Shown: one piece after another, positions 9,536-57,799 of the stretch
Numbering within the stretch: the stretch's first letter is position 1
Layout of the letters: each line of letters opens with the position of its first letter
Origin: a virus
IMG/VR virus record: IMGVR_UViG_3300037483_000443
Location: 71,655 to 135,654 of that record
Reading direction: 5' to 3' (one strand)
DNA length: 64,000 bases
The notes under the pieces: generated by a model
Database searches by the model: none
What the model was told of the DNA's origin: nothing
What the model saw: only the letters and a program-made list of their open reading frames with translations
Made by a program: the position numbers and the translations under genes

Positions 9536-10021
9536 TCATGCTTTGCTCCAATCAAAATCAGATCGAAAGTCAGAATCAACTACAGGTTGAGGGTTAGCTA
9601 CCTTCGGCTGCCAGTCATATTGCCGCCCTACTGTAATGTGCAGCCTGTAGTCAAGACGCAGACCGAGCTCTTTGCGGATCTCGATGAGGCGAGGAGATTC
9701 AACAGTCAGAGACCAGAACTGCCAGTGACGTTCCAAGCGAGACGGATCATACATGAGCTCGATTTCATGCCCGGCATACTTCTTCCAGAGGTTAAGTCGA
9801 TCTTTAGAGATACGCTCATCGCCCTTGACCACAGTGCAGTGAACGCCGAACATCGGACGTTGAAGAGTCAGCCACTGACCGTACTTCTTAGTGAGGAACC
9901 ATTGGTAGTAGAGGTCAAGCTGATCACGTGGCAATTGCACGATGAGAGTGCGTTGCTTGTGAGTTTTCTTGAAGTCCTGACGAACAGGATCGTAAACGAG
10001 CTTGCCTTTAACTTTGATCAC
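9536..10021 (-). CDS. 2H-phosphoesterase-like protein
   Basis: two HxT-type motifs (HCTVV, HITVG) about 70 aa apart; first gene after the suppressor tRNA. Confidence 0.55.
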   Translation of the reverse strand: MIKVKGKLVYDPVRQDFKKTHKQRTLIVQLPRDQLDLYYQWFLTKKYGQWLTLQRPMFGVHCTVVKGDERISKDRLNLWKKYAGHEIELMYDPSRLERHWQFWSLTVESPRLIEIRKELGLRLDYRLHITVGRQYDWQPKVANPQPVVDSDFRSDFDWSKA

Positions 10022-10037: not shown

Positions 10038-10114
10038 TGGTGCGACTGGGGAGGATCGAACTCCCGTTGACGCGGATTTAGAGTCCGCCGCTAAAACCAC
10101 TCAGCTACAATCGC
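10038..10114 (-). tRNA. tRNA-Sup(CUA), amber suppressor
   Basis: acceptor GCGATTG/CAGTCGC-A-CCA, anticodon arm GCGGA-CTCTAAA-TCCGC, T arm GGGAG-TTCGATC-CTCCC; own promoter at 10131-10159. Confidence 0.9.
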
Positions 10115-10130
10115 GTTATTTGATAAGAGA

Positions 10131-10159
10131 ATTATATCATGTGCATCTAGAAAGTAAAC
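10131..10159 (-). promoter_or_regulatory. early promoter
   Basis: GTTTAC-N17-TATAAT with extended -10 TG. Confidence 0.8.
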
Positions 10160-11651: not shown

Positions 11652-12431
11652 TTAGAAAAGATCTTCAACGGTTAGATCAGACATATATGGCAGTTCAACC
11701 GGCTTCACCGGTCGACGCGTCACTAACTCAGTGGTACGGTGCTTCTCGGGAATCTTTGCTAGCTCAAGCTCAGTGAGAGGGCGCTTCTCCTCAACGCGAC
11801 GGAAGTAAGTCCCCTTCCGGTAGCAAGAAGCATAGTTCTCCCACGGATCACCGATCTCACGCAGCATCTGCTTCTTTGCTTCACTGCTAGCTCCATGCAG
11901 CACTCTGTCAGAGAAGTGTGCTTGGGCTACCATCGAGATAGAGTTCTTGATCGCATCTTTCTCACGCCACAGTAAGCACTGGTAAGCTTCATGTAGCGTA
12001 GGAACTTGCCATACTCGTGCATCAAACAGCGGCAGAGCATCTGCTTTTTCAGGTAAGACAGCTGCCAAGTGTTTGTTGAAGTACGCAGTGGCAGTTGCCG
12101 AGAGAATCGAGCAGATCTTTTGGTAGCGTCCGTCAAAAATGTACTCTTGAACTGCGTCTGCTGGAAAGAACCAAACAAGAGTTATCTCATCTGATTGAGT
12201 GTAACCGATTAAGGCACAAGTTTGCTCGACGAGGTACTTTGTGGTGTCTTGCATCAGCTTCGTCAGATTCTCATCAAAAGGGCGCTTCAACCCCTTCGTG
12301 AAGGTGTGAAATGCTCGCCCGTCAAGCCTAGCAATCATCGGCATCCCGATCATGGCTTTACGAGAACCTTCTACTCCCTCGAGAGCTTTCATCTTGTCGC
12401 CGAGGGTATCGTTCTTTGCTATGTTTGTCAT
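11652..12431 (-). CDS. tRNA(His) guanylyltransferase Thg1-like protein
   Basis: RLDGRAFHTFT, YTQSDEI, FDGRYQK, FDARV, WRE.DA.KNSI motifs. Confidence 0.92.
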   Translation of the reverse strand: MTNIAKNDTLGDKMKALEGVEGSRKAMIGMPMIARLDGRAFHTFTKGLKRPFDENLTKLMQDTTKYLVEQTCALIGYTQSDEITLVWFFPADAVQEYIFDGRYQKICSILSATATAYFNKHLAAVLPEKADALPLFDARVWQVPTLHEAYQCLLWREKDAIKNSISMVAQAHFSDRVLHGASSEAKKQMLREIGDPWENYASCYRKGTYFRRVEEKRPLTELELAKIPEKHRTTELVTRRPVKPVELPYMSDLTVEDLF

Positions 12432-13735
12432 TTTCTCTTGTTCCAAAGTGCGATTGCAGAATACACTGCTTCGTTCCCAACGATCGCGCCAGACCCTGTT
12501 CGACCCCCTGTATCACTCGGTCCGCAAGCCCCGCAGTTGCATGAGACATATACTGAAGTTGCCGGTTGACCAGAGTACGAGATTCCGTTCGGCTGTGATC
12601 CACAGAATGGGCAGGATTTCAGCTCTCCGATGAAAGCATTCCGGACGATCTCAGATTTCGTCTTTAAGACAAAGCTCTTGATCTCTGACGGCTTCAGGCC
12701 TTTCACCATCTCTGTAAAGTCCAACTCCAACAAATCGTTGAAAGTGTTCTCAAGATTGGTGAAGAAGTCTTTTGCTTTATCGTCGAATCGATCCAACTTT
12801 TCCAACTTTTTCGTCAACGTGATCATGTTATACAGGTCGCCGTTCTTGATTTCTTCACGAAACGCATCGAAGACCTTAACGATCTGCTCAATCTCTGGCT
12901 CGCCAGACAACCGAACGATTTGAAAGATCTCGTCAACTTTCTGCATGAACTTGCAATAACGTGCTACGTCGCTCGGAACGCGGAACTTTTCCAGCTGTTC
13001 CTTGGTCATAGTGCCTACTTCCAAGAACAAGAACTGCTTCTCATCTAGTGAGAGAATTTCCTCTACCTCATCGGTGTATAGACAGGGAATGACTAGTCCC
13101 TTCAGACGTTCAACCAAGTGCAGAGCACCGATGCTTAGCAAGAAGTTGATACCGATACTAGGACGTTTCTCCGACAACAGCTTGGTCATCTCCGTCCAAA
13201 TCCGGTCAGCAGACAGGGCGTCCAGTTCACCGCTCTCTACTAGCTTACGGCAGAGCTCGACAGTTTCGGGAGCGATCTTGAACCTGTAGCGAGAAGCGAA
13301 GCGAGCAACGCGGATGACCCGCAGAGGATCTTCGGCGAAGGCTTCACTCGTGTGACGGATGATGCCGTCCTTCAGATCCTGACGACCATGCCAAGGATCG
13401 ATGTACTCACCGGTCTCCAAGTTGTAAGCGATCGCGTTGATCGTCAGATCACGACGCAGCAGGTCGTCGTTGATGATGATGTGCGGTCCGAACTCGAACT
13501 CAAAGCCTTGGTAGCCAGCAGCGACTTTCTTTTCACGACGAGCAAGAGCATACTCATCACCGGTTTCAGGATGGAGGAAGACGGGGAATGAAGCTCCGAC
13601 CTGCTTGAAACCTTGGTCGAGCATGTATTGAACGTCGGCCCCGACTACGACGTAATCAAGATCTTTCGGCTCATTGCCGAGAAGCTTGTCTCTTACTGCG
13701 CCGCCAACGAGCAGGCATTGAACTTTTTTAGTCAT
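12428..13735 (-). CDS. cca: CCA-adding tRNA nucleotidyltransferase with C-terminal Lar-like Zn finger
   Basis: VGGAVRD, DLDYVVVG, RRDLTINA, EDPLRVIRVARF; tail LKSCPFCG...CNCGA.G...AIALWNKR. Confidence 0.92.
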   Translation of the reverse strand: MTKKVQCLLVGGAVRDKLLGNEPKDLDYVVVGADVQYMLDQGFKQVGASFPVFLHPETGDEYALARREKKVAAGYQGFEFEFGPHIIINDDLLRRDLTINAIAYNLETGEYIDPWHGRQDLKDGIIRHTSEAFAEDPLRVIRVARFASRYRFKIAPETVELCRKLVESGELDALSADRIWTEMTKLLSEKRPSIGINFLLSIGALHLVERLKGLVIPCLYTDEVEEILSLDEKQFLFLEVGTMTKEQLEKFRVPSDVARYCKFMQKVDEIFQIVRLSGEPEIEQIVKVFDAFREEIKNGDLYNMITLTKKLEKLDRFDDKAKDFFTNLENTFNDLLELDFTEMVKGLKPSEIKSFVLKTKSEIVRNAFIGELKSCPFCGSQPNGISYSGQPATSVYVSCNCGACGPSDTGGRTGSGAIVGNEAVYSAIALWNKRK

Positions 13736-20395: not shown

Positions 20396-21031
20396 TTAAC
20401 CGATTTTTTCACCGGTGACATGGTTTGTTACAATGTCATCTTGGCTACGATATGTTTTAATCTTATCACCACGCATCCCAGCTCCTCGAAGATCTCTCTT
20501 TTCATCGTTCTTTCGTTTCTGCTCTTGATTAGAAAAATAACTTCTAACTTTTGCTTCAAGAAGAGATCTAGCATTTTTCTTGTTGGTATGTTGACAACGC
20601 TCTCTAGCAATTGCTTCTATTCCAGTAGGAATGTGCCGCATGACAACACATGAGTCTGTTGTATTAACATGTTGTCCACCCGGACCGCTAGATTTCTTGG
20701 TGAAGACCGTGATGTCACGATCGTTCAACTTCCACTCAGCTTCTTCTGGAACGATCATTGCTACTACCGTCACTGTTGAAGTGTGAACTCGTCCTTTACG
20801 TTCAGTGGGTGGGATTCGTTGCCACCGGTGACCGCCCGACTCTTGGAGCAATCCCCGGACGAGATTGTCTGGCCCATCGATCGTTAGATTGATTCAGCCG
20901 TGTTGCTCTTCAAAGTCAACTCGAGCGTTGATCCGCTCTGCAAATCGTGCGTAGATGGTAGCTTGGTCATTGACCAAGAGCTTTGCGTCTTCTCCGCCCT
21001 CACCTGGGCGGATCTCTAAACTGATCTTCAT
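20396..21031 (-). CDS. short RF1-type peptide chain release factor with in-frame UGA at codon 46 (20894-20896)
   Basis: ATG 21031 with AGGAG RBS: MKISLEIRPGEGGEDAK...EEQHG*INLTIDG...ESGGHRWQRIPPTERKGRVHTS...GPGGQHVNTTDS; both parts in one frame. Confidence 0.85.
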
Positions 21032-21083: not shown

Positions 21084-22070
21084 CTAGGAGTCTTTCTTTC
21101 CAACAAGGTGTCCTGTTCCATTGCAACAAGAACATTCTGAGATTGGTTGATTTAGATGAAACATTAGCTCGTTAAGATAAAGCCTTACATTCTCGATCAA
21201 GTCTTCAAGAGAATTACCCTTGAAACCTTCGATCGGAGTGTAGCCTTTGTACTTGTTGATGTTGTCTGTCATCTCGAAAATCTCAACTAATTTCGTGGTG
21301 ACAGTACGATTAGTGATGCGAGGGCGAGCGTATGATTTCCCATTTGGCTTCTTCTCTTCGTAAGTGTTCACGATCGGTTTGATCTGAATCTTTTTCTTGA
21401 CAGTAAAGCAGAAGTCATAGTCACTCGTAACTTCAGCATACATGCGATCAAGGTTCTCCTTGACATATTGACGCACAATCTTGTATGATTGTGCTGAAGT
21501 GATGTAACATGGACGCTTGTGCAAGAGCAAGTCGGGGATCAACATCTTCTCAAGTTCGTACCAATTCACGACCGTGCTCAAGTCAAGTTCTTTAACCTTC
21601 TCCCATGCTCCGTCGTTCTTGATTCGAATCTTCATGTCTGATATGCTTCCAGGCAACTCGACTTCGATTTCGCCACAGTACTTGAATTCTGCAGGGTTGG
21701 TTACCCACTTGGAGGGTTCTTGATCAAATTCAGAACGATACAGTGACTGGAGCGTTGCGTGTTTTCCAGTCCATTCTCCGTCGTTATCATTGACCTCGGC
21801 TGGCCAGAGAACTGGCTGGAACCTATCTGCTAGAGATTCATCGATCAAAATGTACCGCTTGTTGATGAAACTACCGGTAGTGAACACTTCGTAAGATGAA
21901 GCTTCAGTTTCACCGGGGACAAAGTACCAAGACTGGTGAAAAGTAGGCATGATCGTCTGACCATTGATGCGGTGGCGATTTACGTCAAATACTTTCTGCC
22001 GTTCGCTTCCGTAGAACACAGAAGAAGCAACGTAGATGCCATTTGCTGACTTGTACCAATCAATTTTCAT
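21084..22070 (-). CDS. hypothetical protein with C-terminal CxxCxGxG
   Basis: 328 aa, AGGAG RBS before MKIDWY. Confidence 0.75.
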   Translation of the reverse strand: MKIDWYKSANGIYVASSVFYGSERQKVFDVNRHRINGQTIMPTFHQSWYFVPGETEASSYEVFTTGSFINKRYILIDESLADRFQPVLWPAEVNDNDGEWTGKHATLQSLYRSEFDQEPSKWVTNPAEFKYCGEIEVELPGSISDMKIRIKNDGAWEKVKELDLSTVVNWYELEKMLIPDLLLHKRPCYITSAQSYKIVRQYVKENLDRMYAEVTSDYDFCFTVKKKIQIKPIVNTYEEKKPNGKSYARPRITNRTVTTKLVEIFEMTDNINKYKGYTPIEGFKGNSLEDLIENVRLYLNELMFHLNQPISECSCCNGTGHLVGKKDS

Positions 22071-22081
22071 GTCTTCTCCTC

Positions 22082-22411
22082 TCAGAGGAACGAGATACTT
22101 GCTTTTGCCTTGAAAGTTCCAGCTTTCTGAACTTCCGGCCAATATTTAATGACGTCTTCGATCAGGTCAAGTGACGTTCTAAAGTCGGCTTCGATCGTCT
22201 GAATGCCTGCGCTGTACGCAAGAGGGTCTCCCTCTTCAGTGATGAACGTCACACTATTATCGCCAATCAAATCTTTTTCAGTGGACTTTGCGAACGTCAT
22301 CATGATACGTCCACAAAGTGTATAGGTACGAAGCACGGTGTCTCCGAACTGTCCGCTCATTCCGCGAACGTTGCAGGCCTCGATGATGTCAAACAGACCT
22401 TTGCGGTACAC
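22082..22411 (-). CDS. hypothetical protein, start uncertain
   Basis: frame stays open upstream to a TAG at ~22481-22483. Confidence 0.5.
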   Translation of the reverse strand: MYRKGLFDIIEACNVRGMSGQFGDTVLRTYTLCGRIMMTFAKSTEKDLIGDNSVTFITEEGDPLAYSAGIQTIEADFRTSLDLIEDVIKYWPEVQKAGTFKAKASISFL

Positions 22412-22732: not shown

Positions 22733-22807
22733 TGGTCTCTCTACCCAGACTTGAACTGGGATCTAAAACTTAGGAGGTTCTTATGCTATCCATTGCACTA
22801 TAGAGAG
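22733..22807 (-). tRNA. tRNA-Arg(CCU)
   Basis: cloverleaf, loop CTCCTAA, CCA encoded. Confidence 0.85.
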
Positions 22808-30742: not shown

Positions 30743-30869
30743 ACGATCGAATCGATATGACGGGAATCGAACCCGCGTCTCCCTCATCAAGAGGGCGCCT
30801 GATCCACTAGGCTACATGTCTCTTCATTCATCAAAGGATTGCCGTCCCTCTCAAACCAAAGTCGATCGT
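30743..30869 (-). ncRNA. tRNA-like RNA with 5-nt anticodon loop inside an outer helix
   Basis: D arm, CCCTC-TTGAT-GAGGG, T arm GCGGG-TTCGATT-CCCGT, no CCA; ACGATCGA/TCGATCGT closes the unit. Confidence 0.55.
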
Positions 30870-31033: not shown

Positions 31034-31109
31034 TGGTGGGTGCCGAGAGAATCGAACTCTCATCTGGCGGATTAAGAGTCCGCTGTAATGGCCGTTATAC
31101 GAGGCACCC
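31034..31109 (-). tRNA. tRNA-Lys(CUU)
   Basis: GCGGA-CTCTTAA-TCCGC, CCA. Confidence 0.88.
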
Positions 31110-35775: not shown

Positions 35776-35799
35776 GAGTGGATCATTATCACCACCCTC

Positions 35800-36095
35800 A
35801 CCTATCCGCCTATTCCGGGTCTGTACGGTTACAAAGAGTCTATTGCTAGACTAGGCGGAACTTCAGCTTAGGCTGCGAGAGCCAGAGCACCATTTGCGTC
35901 ATTAGCACTTATGGTTTTGCTACGCTTAGGGCGTTCGCCTTACCCGTTGACTTTTCATTCTATCTCACCCAATCAAATCCAGGTACACCCCCATGATGGA
36001 TCTTATTGCTCGGTGGAGGTGGCGGGAATCGAACCCGCGTCTTGAGCGCCTTACCTTAAAAGGTGTCCTTTCGGACTACAACGATATTCATACAA
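35800..36095 (-). ncRNA. ssrA: two-piece (circularly permuted) tmRNA
   Basis: T arm+CACCTCC-A-CC (36041-36012) lies upstream of 5' end GGGGGTG (35992); G3-U70; tag GCT..TAA 35906-35868 = ANDANGALALAA*; promoter 36103-36131. Confidence 0.9.
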
Positions 36096-36222
36096 CAGAA
36101 GCATTATATCACAGTCTACAATAAAGTAAACATTTGGATGATTGCGAAGGAATCAACCTAGACGCAATCATTACTACTATTTATTGGCGCCTGCTCTACC
36201 AGCTGAGCTACATCGAAGATTA

Positions 36223-36949: not shown

Positions 36950-37384
36950 TTATATTACAGGTTGAGAAGTCTGTAAACTAAGACTGTATTTGAGAAAAGT
37001 AACGTCGCTGACTAAGATGTGGTGAGTCAACCAGTCAAACAGAAATTGCTGAAGTTCTATCGAGATGTCTTCGCCTTCTTTGAAACGATCAAGATATTTT
37101 TCAGCGTCTTCAAGTAGCATTCGGTGAGCATTGACGTGATCTTCATACTCTGGAAATTTAATCTTGAGCATCTCTTGCTCTTCAGAAGAAAAGTGATCTA
37201 CTGTTTGTTGAATCAACCGCCTAACGATCGAGATGATTCGGTCTTCTGAAGATCCGTCAAAACGAGCTTCATAGAGATCATTGATTGAATTAATGAGGGC
37301 TCTATGCTGCTCGTCTAGAACGCGAGAGCCAAGCATAAAATCATCAGGATTAAGTTGGAGTGGACGTGATAATTTCAAGTTCAC
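36950..37384 (-). CDS. bacteriohemerythrin
   Basis: LDEQH, HFSSEE, HVNAH, WLTHHILVSD di-iron motifs. Confidence 0.9.
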   Translation of the reverse strand: MNLKLSRPLQLNPDDFMLGSRVLDEQHRALINSINDLYEARFDGSSEDRIISIVRRLIQQTVDHFSSEEQEMLKIKFPEYEDHVNAHRMLLEDAEKYLDRFKEGEDISIELQQFLFDWLTHHILVSDVTFLKYSLSLQTSQPVI

Positions 37385-46655: not shown

Positions 46656-46732
46656 GGTGATCAAGGATGGAATCGAGCCATCATCACCTATTTCTACAAA
46701 GAAACAGTGCTCTGCCATTGAGCTACATGATC
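46656..46732 (-). ncRNA. tRNA-like RNA with over-long anticodon stem and 4-nt loop
   Basis: normal D arm, CTGTTTCT-TTGT-AGAAATAG, T loop CTCGATT. Confidence 0.6.
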
Positions 46733-49023: not shown

Positions 49024-49356
49024 TCATGCTGTCTTCTCCTGGTTAAAAGTGATCCATGCTTCACAAAGTGTACGGCTTTCATCTTCAGCGTACAGCTCTG
49101 CGGTTTCTTTGATGAGGCTAATGCGAAGAGCAATTCCCTTCCTCTTAGACATGATGCCGTAGAGACCGCTCTTGCTGATTTCTCCTCTCTGCAGAGGACG
49201 TCCGAGGTGAAAGGTTACTCGCTCTGGACGATACTGTGGCTTATCTTTGCAGATGAAGTGAGCCAGATCTCGACTAAACGTGAGACGGTAGAGCTTCTTG
49301 TCATCACGAACTGCCCAGATCTTCTCAGATAGCTTACAGCTTCCAGAGCAGCTCAT
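49024..49356 (-). CDS. hypothetical protein
   Basis: MSCSGS start overlaps (ATGA) the stop of the Pth2-like gene. Confidence 0.65.
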   Translation of the reverse strand: MSCSGSCKLSEKIWAVRDDKKLYRLTFSRDLAHFICKDKPQYRPERVTFHLGRPLQRGEISKSGLYGIMSKRKGIALRISLIKETAELYAEDESRTLCEAWITFNQEKTA

Positions 49357-49715
49357 GATTGTTCTCCTGCCTTGTAGAGACGATACTTCTTGAAGTGATG
49401 ACGCTGCTCTGCCGTGAGGGGCACGGTAGCAAAAGAAGTATGGCTTGGTAGATAGCCTAGATTGTCGTCGGGCTCGTAGAAGAGAGCACAATCGATACCT
49501 TGTGAGGCTATGTGATCATGAGCTTTGAGGAGATGTTCCTCATCGCGAGCTTCGAGTAGAATGAGAGAAGTAGTCTCGTTGAACTTCTTACCAGCGAGAC
49601 CGGCTTTGAGACCTGCTTCAAGAGTTGCGTGCGCAGCTTGAACGATTTGCTGTGCAGCTGGGAGATCCTTGCGAATGAATGTGTAGCAGTAAGTCTTATC
49701 AGAAATCTACAGCAT
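49353..49715 (-). CDS. Pth2-like peptidyl-tRNA hydrolase family protein with UAG at codon 3
   Basis: AAGGAG-N5-ATG CTG TAG ATT...; downstream 117 open codons YTFIRKDLPAAQQIVQAAHA...FYEPD...TVPL; absent from ORF track. Confidence 0.8.
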
Positions 49716-49768: not shown

Positions 49769-49798
49769 ATTATAACACAGTTGTCTTAGAAAGTAAAC
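49769..49798 (-). promoter_or_regulatory. early promoter of the Pth2-like gene
   Basis: GTTTAC-N18-TATAAT; late-type GATAAATA at ~49747-49754. Confidence 0.75.
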
Positions 49799-52463: not shown

Positions 52464-52952
52464 TCACAGCAGAGGTAGATGATCGCATATTCCTTTTACC
52501 TGGCTTGGGTATGCCGGACCGATGACTCCACAGGTCAAAGTTTTGACGCCGTTGAACTCGGTCAAGCCGTTGTCGATGATGAGCTTAGTATTGAGCCCTG
52601 CAAGCTCTGCTTTTGTGATGACGTCACGAAGCTCTTGTTCACTTGTAGCACTCAAACATATCTTGGTAAAGCTCCCCTTGACGAGCCACTCTTCCAGAAC
52701 CGGAGTAAGGGGGATCATCAAGTAGCAATCACCGGCATCGCCCATGAATTCGGTGTAGTTATTGAAGATAGCACCGACAACTCCGTGAGATCCTTGCGCA
52801 ACCATCTTACCCTTGCGCATGTTCAGATCCTTTCGAAGGATGATCCACTGCTTGGGAACTTCTTCAACAGAAGGTGTGTCTTCAGCGAGGACTTTCTCGA
52901 GAACTTTTGTGTCTACTTCGTTCTCTAGAGCAGCTTTCATGAGTTTATTCAT
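52464..52952 (-). CDS. peptidyl-tRNA hydrolase Pth2
   Basis: RKDLNMRKGKMVAQGSH, TKICL, DNGLTE, T.T...IGP, HLPLL. Confidence 0.92.
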   Translation of the reverse strand: MNKLMKAALENEVDTKVLEKVLAEDTPSVEEVPKQWIILRKDLNMRKGKMVAQGSHGVVGAIFNNYTEFMGDAGDCYLMIPLTPVLEEWLVKGSFTKICLSATSEQELRDVITKAELAGLNTKLIIDNGLTEFNGVKTLTCGVIGPAYPSQVKGICDHLPLL

Positions 52953-54048: not shown

Positions 54049-54527
54049 TTGATCGGCTCCAGTGATTTCTTCATGATTCCGATGAACTGAGCCATCGTTG
54101 CATTTTTTCTACAAACGGTAACCCACTTGGGATCAAAGTGGTATCCAGGGACAACACTATCATTTACCCCAGAGATCTTCCGAACGAGAGTGCCAGCAGA
54201 ACAGCCAGGGTGTTCATCATCCTTGACCACATAAACCTCATTGCTCAAGTTCAGAGTACGTCGGTCAGAAGAATCTTTGATCGTCAGTTTCTCTTGTAGT
54301 TCCCAGCCAGTACTTTTGACATGCATGCGATTGATCGAAATCTTGATCTCACGATTACCACCATTTCGGCTCCCGAAGACATAACCGTCCATATCACACG
54401 GTAGCATGATCGCCTTGCCGTCACTGATATCTGTGACTTTACCATATCGGTTGGGCATGCGCTTGTCAAGATCTTTCCAAACCTGCCCGAGCATCACTTC
54501 GATGCCAGTTTTCGTGATGTTGTTCAT
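54045..54527 (-). CDS. hypothetical protein
   Basis: 160 aa in coupled run. Confidence 0.6.
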   Translation of the reverse strand: MNNITKTGIEVMLGQVWKDLDKRMPNRYGKVTDISDGKAIMLPCDMDGYVFGSRNGGNREIKISINRMHVKSTGWELQEKLTIKDSSDRRTLNLSNEVYVVKDDEHPGCSAGTLVRKISGVNDSVVPGYHFDPKWVTVCRKNATMAQFIGIMKKSLEPIK

Positions 54528-54991
54528 ACACCCAGAGCCTTTCTTTCTTCTTCTGTCAACTTTGCGACAGCATTCTTGCGAACATTAGCGAGACGTTCTT
54601 CTTCAGCAAGATGATCGCGATGCTGTTGAACCTCATCTTCAACGTTCTTAAGAGTCCAGAGATCATCTCTACCAGAGGGAACTACGTTGAAGGTGAAATG
54701 ATCTGTATCATTCCAGTGATGGCCTTTAGTCACCGTGAACTCTACTCTGTTGTTGGGCAGTCTCTTCACGGAGAAACCAGCATCCGAGAAACTTGCAAAA
54801 TCTAGAACTGCGTTCAGTAGGCGTTCATTCCAGTTTGCAGTATCCTTGCGAAACTGTTCGGCTTGCTCTGCAGCCATCTTCTCGTGGAGAGCGGCTTCAC
54901 GAGCTTCTCTTTCGAGGCGACGTTGAGTACGCAGCGCTTTCTTTTCAGCAGCAGACAGAACAGGTTTTGTATCAGCAACAGTCGCCATCAT
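54524..54991 (-). CDS. hypothetical early protein
   Basis: ends AKLTEEERKALGV; promoter 55020-55048. Confidence 0.7.
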   Translation of the reverse strand: MMATVADTKPVLSAAEKKALRTQRRLEREAREAALHEKMAAEQAEQFRKDTANWNERLLNAVLDFASFSDAGFSVKRLPNNRVEFTVTKGHHWNDTDHFTFNVVPSGRDDLWTLKNVEDEVQQHRDHLAEEERLANVRKNAVAKLTEEERKALGV

Positions 54992-56884: not shown

Positions 56885-57799
56885 TTATATGACTCCTTTG
56901 ATAGTTGAACGAAATTCTTCCAGTTTGTTCTTGGCAAGGATTCGGTTAGAATCATCACTCAAGTAATGCAATGTTGTAACAGAAATCCAGCTTGGGATGG
57001 TAGTCAGCACAGTGTCAACTAACAGCGAGTTGATCCTTTGCATAGATTGAACCATCGCCGATGAGGTCATCTTCATTTCTAACAGATTGTTCCAGCTCTT
57101 AGTGAGAGAGACCAATCTGAGGTCAATCATGTCTTGCTCATCTTGAGGACGAATTTTAGACAAAACGTGGTTTGTGATCAGTAAAATCTTGATCTTTTTT
57201 TCCACATCAAAGGATTCATCACCAAGATCCGCTAACTCCTTAATGACTGGTTCTAACTGAGTGCTTACAAGCTTCAGAGTAGAAACACAGCTCTCGAGCT
57301 GTCTTACATTCTCTTGAAACTTTGCTTCAGTGTTCGAGAAGTTAAAGATTCCCTTCGGCTCGAACCACTCATGAAGTTGATCAACGAGTGTATTAACTCG
57401 AACCATCATTCCCTGAGCATCCACTAAAGCACGTTTCTTAGACATCTCTAAGAACTGGGAAGCCAACTTTGCAGCTTCCTTTTGCTCTGTCATCCCAAAG
57501 TCACTCCAATTACGACGAATCCCCTTTGCCGGAATGTTACGGATTAATACCTCTCTTACTGCTTCCAAGTCACCGTCATCTGCTGCCGGGTCAATCTTCT
57601 TCAGATCTGCCAGAGTAGGAAGATCTATCACCAGGCGCTCGCCTTTTAGAGCATTTGCTGGTGTAAAGGACTTCGCCGGAGTAGGAGTAACCACAGCTTC
57701 TGGTTGACGTCCCACAGTACCAGGAAGAGCAGAGGGTTTGAAATCTTTCTTAGTCTCTGCTTTCATCGAACCGGCGACAGATGTTGGAGTGAATACCAT
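56885..57799 (-). CDS. TelA-like helical protein
   Basis: coiled-coil, TTIPSW motif, position in Ter cluster. Confidence 0.55.
   Translation of the reverse strand: MVFTPTSVAGSMKAETKKDFKPSALPGTVGRQPEAVVTPTPAKSFTPANALKGERLVIDLPTLADLKKIDPAADDGDLEAVREVLIRNIPAKGIRRNWSDFGMTEQKEAAKLASQFLEMSKKRALVDAQGMMVRVNTLVDQLHEWFEPKGIFNFSNTEAKFQENVRQLESCVSTLKLVSTQLEPVIKELADLGDESFDVEKKIKILLITNHVLSKIRPQDEQDMIDLRLVSLTKSWNNLLEMKMTSSAMVQSMQRINSLLVDTVLTTIPSWISVTTLHYLSDDSNRILAKNKLEEFRSTIKGVI

Follow-up and report, generated by a model that had tools for sequence, protein, structure and literature searches.

Why would a phage that uses the standard genetic code carry a transfer RNA (tRNA) that reads a stop codon? The question was raised by a stand-alone tRNA with the anticodon CUA in 64,000 nucleotides of viral DNA, hereafter the window, which correspond to positions 71,655 to 135,654 of the IMG/VR virus record IMGVR_UViG_3300037483_000443. 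An earlier note on this DNA, made from the sequence alone, had taken the tRNA for an amber suppressor whose sole clear client was a Pth2-like gene, and all main points of that reading were supported by our analysis. The client proved to be a divergent PTH2-like gene in which TAG is the third codon. We consider it likely, though by no means certain, that the conserved job of the amber tRNA is to license translation of this one gene and not to change the genetic code.

The PTH2-like gene opens with the ribosome-binding site AAGGAG, a spacer of 5 nt, the start codon ATG (49715-49713) and a single CTG, followed by TAG (49709-49707) and ATT. The 117 codons after the TAG run to a TGA at 49355-49353, the first in-frame ATG, GTG or TTG among them being at codon 95, and full read-through gives a product of 120 residues. 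We call this arrangement (ATG, one to four codons, TAG and a purine) the gate. The orthologue in G002, a complete relative from IMG/VR (345,069 bp, terminal repeats, rated 100% complete), shares 74% identity with the gene of the window; its TAG, at 243955, stands behind AGGAAG, a 4-nt spacer (CATC) and ATG AAA GCA GCT CTG, and is followed by 119 codons without any ATG, GTG or TTG. Pfam PTH2 (PF01981) matched the gated gene with 23.0 bits, which is exactly the 23-bit cut-off (expectation value, E, 9.6e-5), and a profile of the gene family reached only E 0.012 against Pth2 sequences of the PDB. The AlphaFold model, based on 25 sequences, had a predicted local distance difference test (pLDDT) score of 90.5. 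At E ≤ 0.001 it matched 15 folds, which were 14 chains of six Pth2-type PDB entries and Atu0240, a protein of unknown function, with template modelling (TM) scores of 0.50-0.81; the predicted structure has the Pth2 fold. Among archaeal and eukaryotic Pth2 proteins (PDB 2zv3, 1wn2, 3erj, 1q7s and 1xty) the TM scores were 0.66-0.81 with a match probability of 1.00, and the N-terminal motif R-x-D-L ... Q-x-x-H-A is common to these and the gated protein. A canonical, ungated PTH2 paralogue lies in the same window. It was rejected as an amber client, as it ends in TGA and has no in-frame TAG.

The gate was then sought without regard to the gene behind it. The scan required a ribosome-binding site, a start, one to eight codons, any stop, and then a coding open reading frame (ORF) of at least 70 codons with no start in its first 30, and was run over seven contigs (874 kb) on both strands. 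The PTH2-like gene came up in four contigs, along with one probable false positive in G002, and nothing with TGA or TAA was found in the 874 kb. On the 135.6-kb contig from which the window comes, the PTH2-like gene was the only such gate. Orthologous loci were inspected by eye in 32 cases, 18 of them contigs (the window and IMG/VR) and 14 GenBank phages out of 33 matching records, and the gate was present in 18 of the 32. The contigs comprised 8 gated loci, 9 with a normal start and 1 unclear case. Ten of the GenBank phages were gated: RsoM2USA, CBB, GAP32, fHe-Yen9-03, pEa_SNUABM_47, Serratia BF, XbC2, LR756511 (595 kb, uncultured), Salmonella Arash and Acinetobacter ME3. RaK2 has a normal start, and in XacN1, Xoo-sp13 and Hallingskeid the PTH2-like domain is fused to an upstream ORF and ungated. 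The orthologues reach down to 34-47% identity, with hosts from Ralstonia to Acinetobacter and Enterobacterales.

Across the gated loci the stop was always TAG, at codon 3, 4 or 6, and the base after it was A or G in 18/18; the leader residues ahead of it were not conserved. A purine after UAG favours amber suppression in E. coli. No canonical start followed the TAG in 5 of the 18 loci, and in 5 more the first one lay at least 85 codons downstream. The gate also accounts for a gene that was missed or truncated in GenBank, since annotation was missing or began at an internal start in 12 of the 14 records inspected (all 10 gated ones, including the unannotated LR756511, and two others); in RsoM2USA, where the gate reads ATG TTG TAG ATT, the gene is unannotated. 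Likewise, 13 of 25 homologues in a large protein database start inside the conserved N-terminal strand, as a gene caller would place them when blocked by a TAG. Q stands where the gate would be in several homologues from the database (MKAALQVQ, MTQI, MSQI); these are proteins only, in which Q may stand for a CAG codon or for a TAG read as Q.

Gate and CUA tRNA occurred together. Of the 18 gated records, all but pEa_SNUABM_47 were searched for the tRNA, and it was present in 14 of these 17, namely the contig of the window, G002, G008, G012, G013, RsoM2USA, CBB, GAP32, fHe-Yen9-03, BF, XbC2, LR756511, Arash and ME3. The three gated records without it are fragments rated 22%, 13% and 4% complete. 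In most gated phages with a CUA tRNA it lies 0.5-8 kb from the gated gene; in the window and G002 the distance is about 40 kb, and the tRNA stands at the locus of a 2H-phosphoesterase-like gene. The search pattern, YTCTAAR...GTTCRA, misses loops such as CCCTAAA. It missed the CUA tRNA of ME3, which is one of the annotated tRNAs of that phage (the numbering goes up to tRNA4) and lies upstream of the gated gene at a distance of 450 nt. In RaK2, in which the gate is absent, and in G016 the pattern found no CUA tRNA, a weak negative given the variants that it can miss.

The tRNA itself was examined for its structure. ARAGORN and Rfam agreed on a tRNA with the anticodon CUA where the earlier note had placed it, the Rfam tRNA model (RF00005) scoring 57.8 bits at 10041-10114 against a gathering score of 29. 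In the cloverleaf, the acceptor stem has 7 bp, the D stem 4 bp and the anticodon stem 5 bp, and the D loop is 8 nt long and contains GG. The anticodon loop is CTCTAAA (7 nt; U33, a purine at 37), the variable loop has 5-6 nt, the discriminator is A73 and CCA is encoded. ARAGORN labels the anticodon CTA as tRNA-Pyl. The architecture of tRNA-Pyl is a 6-bp anticodon stem, a 3-nt variable loop and a small D loop without GG, which the tRNA of the window does not have, so that the label reflects the anticodon only; tRNA-Pyl was ruled out by the anticodon stem, variable loop and D loop, and pyrrolysine synthesis genes were not searched for. The nearest other tRNA is at 22733, 12.6 kb off, in agreement with the separation of some 12 kb described before.

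Comparison with relatives indicated that this tRNA has been maintained. Seven syntenic CUA tRNAs, from the window and its relatives, were only 60-80% alike and had kept CUA in 7/7. Their stems were paired in 140/140 cells, 12 of the 20 pairs had changed on both sides, and none of 500 shuffles reached the observed pairing. These patterns argue that the CUA tRNA is real and under selection. In a wider comparison of 21 CUA tRNAs from 20 phage records, the anticodon was CUA in 21/21, the loop CTCTAAA was present in 18/21, and the discriminator, readable in 20, was A in 17 of them. Acceptor stems varied widely among the 21, with one stem common to two cultured relatives. The CUA tRNA appears to be a working amber suppressor, whose expression and aminoacylation we infer, with indirect support from the conserved client and its in-frame UAG.

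The amino acid that it would carry was sought by similarity. As the earlier note had it, the anticodon arm (GCGGA-CTCTAAA-TCCGC) is one base apart from that of tRNA-Lys(CUU) at 31034-31109 (GCGGA-CTCTTAA-TCCGC) and the rest of the body differs, the two tRNAs being 68% alike over their whole length. In G002 the arms are GCGAT/ATCGC for the CUA tRNA and GCGGA/TCCGT for tRNA-Lys(CUU); since the likeness is absent there, the arm gives no evidence for lysine origin or identity. Within the phages, the best similarities were 66-74%, and none of the isotypes concerned (Cys, Lys, Leu, Trp, Thr and Phe) came first consistently. Blastn of the CUA tRNA against phage records gave partial matches only (a Tunturiibacter phage tRNA-Cys at 78%; Asn and Pro), comparison with E. 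coli genomes gave nothing meaningful, and an exact-pattern scan of IMG/VR with the anticodon left free gave 0 matches. In E. coli, CUA anticodons placed on many tRNA bodies receive Gln or Lys, which fits acceptor stems that drift. The identity of the inserted amino acid probably matters little, because the UAG falls in a short, variable N-terminal leader and because the acceptor stems drift between relatives.

We further investigated if the phage had reassigned TAG. The stops of 154 genes on the 135.6-kb contig were TAA in 69, TGA in 68 and TAG in 17, and those of 491 genes in G002 were TAA in 243, TGA in 191 and TAG in 57. TAG codons with at least 40 open codons on each side numbered 56, and the flanks were coding-like in a single case, a TAG at 52030-52028. 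It was rejected as a client, as an ATG follows directly and the site reads as an ordinary junction of two small ORFs; the 17 TAA cases in the same flank scan were likewise ordinary junctions with a ribosome-binding site and a start. None of 30 gaps in the gene map was better filled by reading through TAG. The phage uses the standard code, and the marks of TAG reassignment (code 15) were absent. The statement that long ORFs are not broken by TAG, and that there is no wholesale recoding, is borne out by these stop counts, the flank scan and the gap test, and a genome-wide scan for in-frame TAG identified one client in the 135.6-kb contig and one in the 345-kb G002. Among 86 reciprocal-best orthologue pairs between the contig and G002, a TAG stop was one-sided in 8 and shared in 0; with none shared, there is no conserved read-through extension. 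The next in-frame stop behind a TAG stop was TAG again in 5 of 17 genes. No adaptation of the TAG-ended genes to a suppressor was visible in their sequences. Among other holders of a CUA tRNA, TAG stops were rare in G011 (3/180 genes) and G008 (1/38), compared with about 11% in the contig of the window and G002.

The promoters of the two genes were compared. Upstream of the CUA tRNA, the promoter attributed to it earlier was recovered as TTTACT, 16 nt and TATAAT; the early timing given in the earlier note is a suggestion drawn from this sigma-70-like consensus. A site of the same type, with a 17-nt spacer, precedes the PTH2-like gene. The 12-mer GTTTACTTTCTA is present exactly at 10148-10159, in the tRNA promoter, and at 49787-49798, in that of the PTH2-like gene, and these are its only two exact copies in the window. 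Written as GTTTACTTTCT[AT], the motif recurs at 11 sites of the window when one mismatch is allowed, where 0.28 would be expected. Ten of the sites lie on the coding strand, and the 11 include 4430, 11351, 15081, 25501, 26562, 36428, 51261 and 55037; it is probably the -35 region of one phage promoter class. Judging from the shared promoter motif only, the tRNA and the gated gene would be co-regulated.

Table. Features of the window and its source contig (positions are those of the window).
Feature	Position	Strand	Basis or remark
tRNA, anticodon CUA (reads UAG), 77 nt	10038..10114	-	ARAGORN, Rfam RF00005, cloverleaf, 7 syntenic homologues
Amber-gated divergent PTH2-like gene	49353..49715	-	sequence, Pfam PTH2, AlphaFold model, fold matches
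Promoter-like site TTTACT-16-TATAAT, TG extension before -10, upstream of CUA tRNA	10131..10158	-	consensus scan, 10/12 matches
Promoter-like site TTTACT-17-TATAAT, TG extension, upstream of PTH2-like gene	49769..49797	-	pattern searches
2H-phosphoesterase-like gene, 161 aa (amino acids), begins 16 nt past tRNA	9536..10021	-	HxT motifs, Pfam
Canonical PTH2 paralogue, ungated	52464..52952	-	Pfam PTH2, E 1.2e-24
Source contig	135,654 bp, 44.5% G+C		window is its final 64 kb

How would such a gate work? The CUA tRNA is presumably charged by a host synthetase. A ribosome would start at the ATG behind the strong ribosome-binding site and meet UAG at the third codon. Without charged tRNA, release factor 1 (RF1) would terminate after a dipeptide, a cheap failure that leaves no truncated protein; with charged tRNA, the UAG would be read and the 120-residue protein made. 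As the tRNA gene and the gated gene each stand behind the same promoter type, output would need both products. Such a need for two products would make a natural coherent feed-forward (AND) gate, tightly closed when off and later or sharper in its onset. The PTH2-like protein may need this control because it does harm when made early. Alternatively, it may work on what suppression produces, or the gate may serve as a readout of the competition between RF1 and the tRNA. We infer the actual read-through at the gate, the feed-forward logic and the role of the hydrolase-like protein.

Several observations weigh against a dedicated pairing of tRNA and gate, or limit it. In G011 and G015 a CUA tRNA is present and the PTH2-like gene is ungated, and in the 183 kb of G011 no client of any kind was detected. 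Passages of the XacN1 paper (PMC5852040) report two CUA tRNAs in that phage, whose orthologue was ungated in our analysis. CUA tRNAs in ungated relatives mean that the tRNA may have a further or older role. Moreover, about 11% of the genes in G002 and in the contig of the window end in TAG. As their products would be lengthened by an efficient suppressor, suppression must be weak, context-dependent or tolerated; the gene calls behind these counts came from a simple home-made codon-usage caller, not a validated one. At the gate itself, the codon after TAG was ATT in 8 of the 18 loci, and an in-frame GTG stood 9-20 codons past the TAG in 6 of the 18. ATT is a weak start codon in bacteria, and with it or a nearby GTG some product could arise without suppression. 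The client adds a doubt of its own. Canonical Pth2 proteins have their catalytic loop residues in the GKGK loop (Lys) and in DAG (Asp). In the profile alignment the GKGK loop was not kept, a shorter P-x-A stretch standing in its place, and DAG was aligned to E-P-D; compared with Pth2, at 9-22% identity, the DAG-x-T region reads Y-E-P-D-D, and the phage also has a canonical PTH2. We therefore name the protein PTH2-like and not a proven peptidyl-tRNA hydrolase, and judged from these motifs its enzymatic activity is uncertain.

Could the tRNA instead be a general-purpose suppressor, which buffers nonsense mutations in a very large genome, extends UAG-ended proteins of the host, or competes with RF1 or with toxins whose target is UAG in the ribosomal A site, the gate being a secondary passenger that could arise once the tRNA was present? 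CUA tRNAs alongside an ungated PTH2-like gene (G011, G015), and in XacN1 without a target found by its authors, would agree with such a role, as would the UCA and UUA suppressors in related fragments and the broad investment of the phage in termination and ribosome rescue (transfer-messenger RNA (tmRNA), canonical PTH2, an RF1-like gene). The TAG-ended genes, however, show no read-through adaptation and share no TAG stop in 86 orthologue pairs, and a general suppressor does not predict that gate and tRNA occur together so tightly, or that they are adjacent in several phages; we hold it to be clearly unlikely. A nascent reassignment of TAG, in which a suppressor has been acquired and in-frame TAGs are starting to accumulate, would explain why TAG stops are rare in the tRNA holders G011 (3/180) and G008 (1/38). 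Passages of a preprint on stop-codon recoding (10.1101/2021.08.26.457843) state this model and report a standard-code relative with a TGA suppressor. The same single gate recurs across very distant phages without a second client, however, and TAG is a normal stop at about 11% in the contig of the window and G002, a pattern of stasis and not of transition, which makes an early stage of reassignment very improbable.

A different objection is that the gate is not read by the tRNA at all, ATG-NNN-TAG being a two-codon leader mini-ORF and the body being made by re-initiation or from a non-canonical start, with the tRNA unrelated. Two-codon minigenes such as lambda bar do interact with peptidyl-tRNA hydrolase biology, and the ATT after TAG in 8/18 loci and the in-frame GTG 9-20 codons downstream in some could serve as such starts. 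In the other 10 of the 18 loci, however, the codon after TAG is AAT, AAC, GTT, GCG or GAA, none of them a start, and 5 loci have no canonical start after TAG. The stop is always TAG and never TGA or TAA, as a CUA tRNA requires, and the tRNA is present in 14/17 gated records, the misses being fragments. We regard the mini-ORF as quite improbable. Still less probable, in our estimate, is a non-decoding role for the tRNA, which would act from the 5' end of the 2H mRNA as a signal for its processing or stability, or would be a decoy for, or a substrate of, anticodon nucleases or RNA repair. The tRNA does stand 15-26 nt before the 2H gene across deep divergence, and in distant relatives a tRNA-Cys(GCA) is found there, so that the position is conserved whatever the anticodon. 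However, CUA and the canonical 7-nt loop were kept in 7/7 of the closer copies while the rest changed, and elsewhere the CUA tRNA lies near the gated gene and not next to a 2H gene, which together indicate decoding of UAG.

A wider idea combines the amber gate with a second gene. The RF1-like gene at 20396-21031 on the minus strand has a PxT-type motif (PPT) and a GGQ motif, lacks the N-terminal domain, and contains an in-frame TGA at 20896-20894; in the orthologue from G002, at 66% identity, a TGA occupies exactly this position, with ...EHG before it and INLT... after it. A clean UCA tRNA was found in neither the contig of the window nor G002. The TGA could be a site of read-through, a termination sensor or a shared defect. 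Early in-frame stops on translation-factor genes might sense termination capacity, the PTH2-like gene via UAG and the RF1-like gene via UGA, a suggestion that we make tentatively and regard as rather unlikely. UAG would be read only by RF1 or the phage tRNA, and UGA only by release factor 2. A shortage or blockage of the corresponding host factor, for instance through a host defence, would increase the output of each gene, and the amber tRNA would convert slow termination at UAG into production of an enzyme that recycles tRNA. If true, stop codons would here form a natural feedback circuit that acts on termination through two channels. The release factor 2 gene prfB is autoregulated by an early in-frame UGA. 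It resembles the gated gene in that an early in-frame stop lies in a translation-factor gene and synthesis depends on competition at that stop; it differs in that rescue is by +1 frameshift without a dedicated tRNA, and the factor sensed is its own product.

Licensing of one gene by the amber tRNA can be set beside what is known of suppressor tRNAs in phages. Passages of the XacN1 paper (PMC5852040) describe its two CUA suppressor genes and an in-silico read-through of 18 amber stops that gave no target, and passages of the RsoM2USA paper (PMC8504454) describe one CUA suppressor and name no specific target; a Stenotrophomonas phage announcement reportedly likewise mentions a suppressor tRNA without a findable target. 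As these papers describe them, XacN1 and RsoM2USA resemble the phage of the window in belonging to the same broad group with the standard code, large tRNA sets and one or two CUA tRNAs. In contrast to those accounts, a target is identified here, and RsoM2USA itself carries the gate whereas XacN1 does not. A comparative jumbo-phage paper notes PTH2 in these phages, and the passages of it that were found hold nothing on suppressors or gates. In recoded phages (crAss-like, Lak and others, with TAG as Gln), as described in parts of 10.1101/2021.08.26.457843, a phage CUA tRNA likewise acts in a standard-code host and makes translation conditional. There, TAG lies in frame in many late and lysis genes and is no stop, whereas in the phage of the window TAG ends 11% of the genes and one gene is gated. 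The same logic was engineered in E. coli as a suppressor-tRNA feed-forward 'leak dampener' (PMC7969014), in which the target needs a suppressor tRNA, two inputs are combined and leak is suppressed; that device is man-made, and in the phages a conserved arrangement of natural origin offers a counterpart to engineered gates of this kind.

CUA suppressor tRNAs are thus already known. Searches of article full texts found no description of an amber-gated PTH2-like gene, and as far as these searches show, a single-gene amber gate with a dedicated tRNA in standard-code phages is apparently not in print. The suppressor tRNAs of standard-code phages, repeatedly reported without a purpose, would gain a concrete target, and stop-codon suppression by phages would be not only a whole-genome code switch but also a regulatory device for one gene. 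Because GAP32, CBB, Serratia BF, Salmonella Arash and Acinetobacter ME3 carry the gate and grow in laboratory culture, the question can be tested directly.

The neighbour of the CUA tRNA was also examined. The 2H-phosphoesterase-like gene noticed earlier after the tRNA has the motifs H61-x-T63 and H128-x-T130, both invariant in 12/12 aligned sequences; its Pfam 2H-SAK score of 22.4 bits is under the 27-bit cut-off (E 1.5e-4). Scanning metagenome contigs with the 2H protein gave 15 loci. At the five closest (65-79% identity), a tRNA stands 15-26 nt before the 2H gene, and all six tRNAs there (one locus has two) have the anticodon CUA like that of the window. At four distant loci (L016-L019, 34-35% identity in the 2H protein), the slot before the 2H gene is occupied by tRNA-Cys(GCA). 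Comparison of these loci indicates that the tRNA slot is older than the amber anticodon. In the IMG/VR relative L002 (65% identity in the 2H protein), no tRNA was found within the 2.1 kb available upstream.

Genes for the baseplate, tail fibres and replication are present on the contig, together with many that relate to translation, the latter including a Thg1-like enzyme, a CCA-adding enzyme, canonical PTH2, the RF1-like gene and tmRNA. It is probably a fragment, because no capsid or terminase gene was recognised on its 135.6 kb. The closest cultured phage is the Ralstonia jumbo phage RsoM2USA, with 44.5% identity in the baseplate wedge protein, and megablast of 6 kb around the CUA tRNA against phage records gave no match. 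The 43 tRNAs that ARAGORN found in the window, and a single permuted tmRNA, are all encoded on the minus strand. The tmRNA (35777-36103, minus strand) is of the two-piece type with the tag peptide ANDANGALALAA. G002 holds 52 tRNAs, a stand-alone CUA tRNA and a tmRNA that encodes the identical tag.

Some tRNAs had unusual features. A 70-nt 'tRNA-Ser(UGA)' at 30752-30821 (minus strand) has no long variable arm and has mismatches in the acceptor stem, and in the counterpart from G002 the anticodon loop is 6 nt long and includes TTCA. A tRNA at 46656-46732 (minus strand) has an 8-nt anticodon loop (ttgt). Among IMG/VR fragments, G009 has two tRNAs with the anticodon UCA (54520-54591 and 56932-57002), and G007 has a tRNA with the anticodon UUA (37075-37150) about 1.2 kb from an ungated PTH2-like gene. 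Between the CUA tRNA and the tRNA arrays, the minus strand of the window encodes a Thg1-like tRNA-His guanylyltransferase (11652-12446), a CCA-adding enzyme fused to a Lar-like zinc-ribbon domain (12428-13735) and a homologue of the anti-Gabija protein Gad1 (21084-22142). Outside the window, the DNA polymerase gene (contig positions 67058-70974, locus L006) is divided into an N-terminal piece of 341 residues and a C-terminal piece of 654 residues, and is split by a homing-endonuclease gene on the opposite strand.

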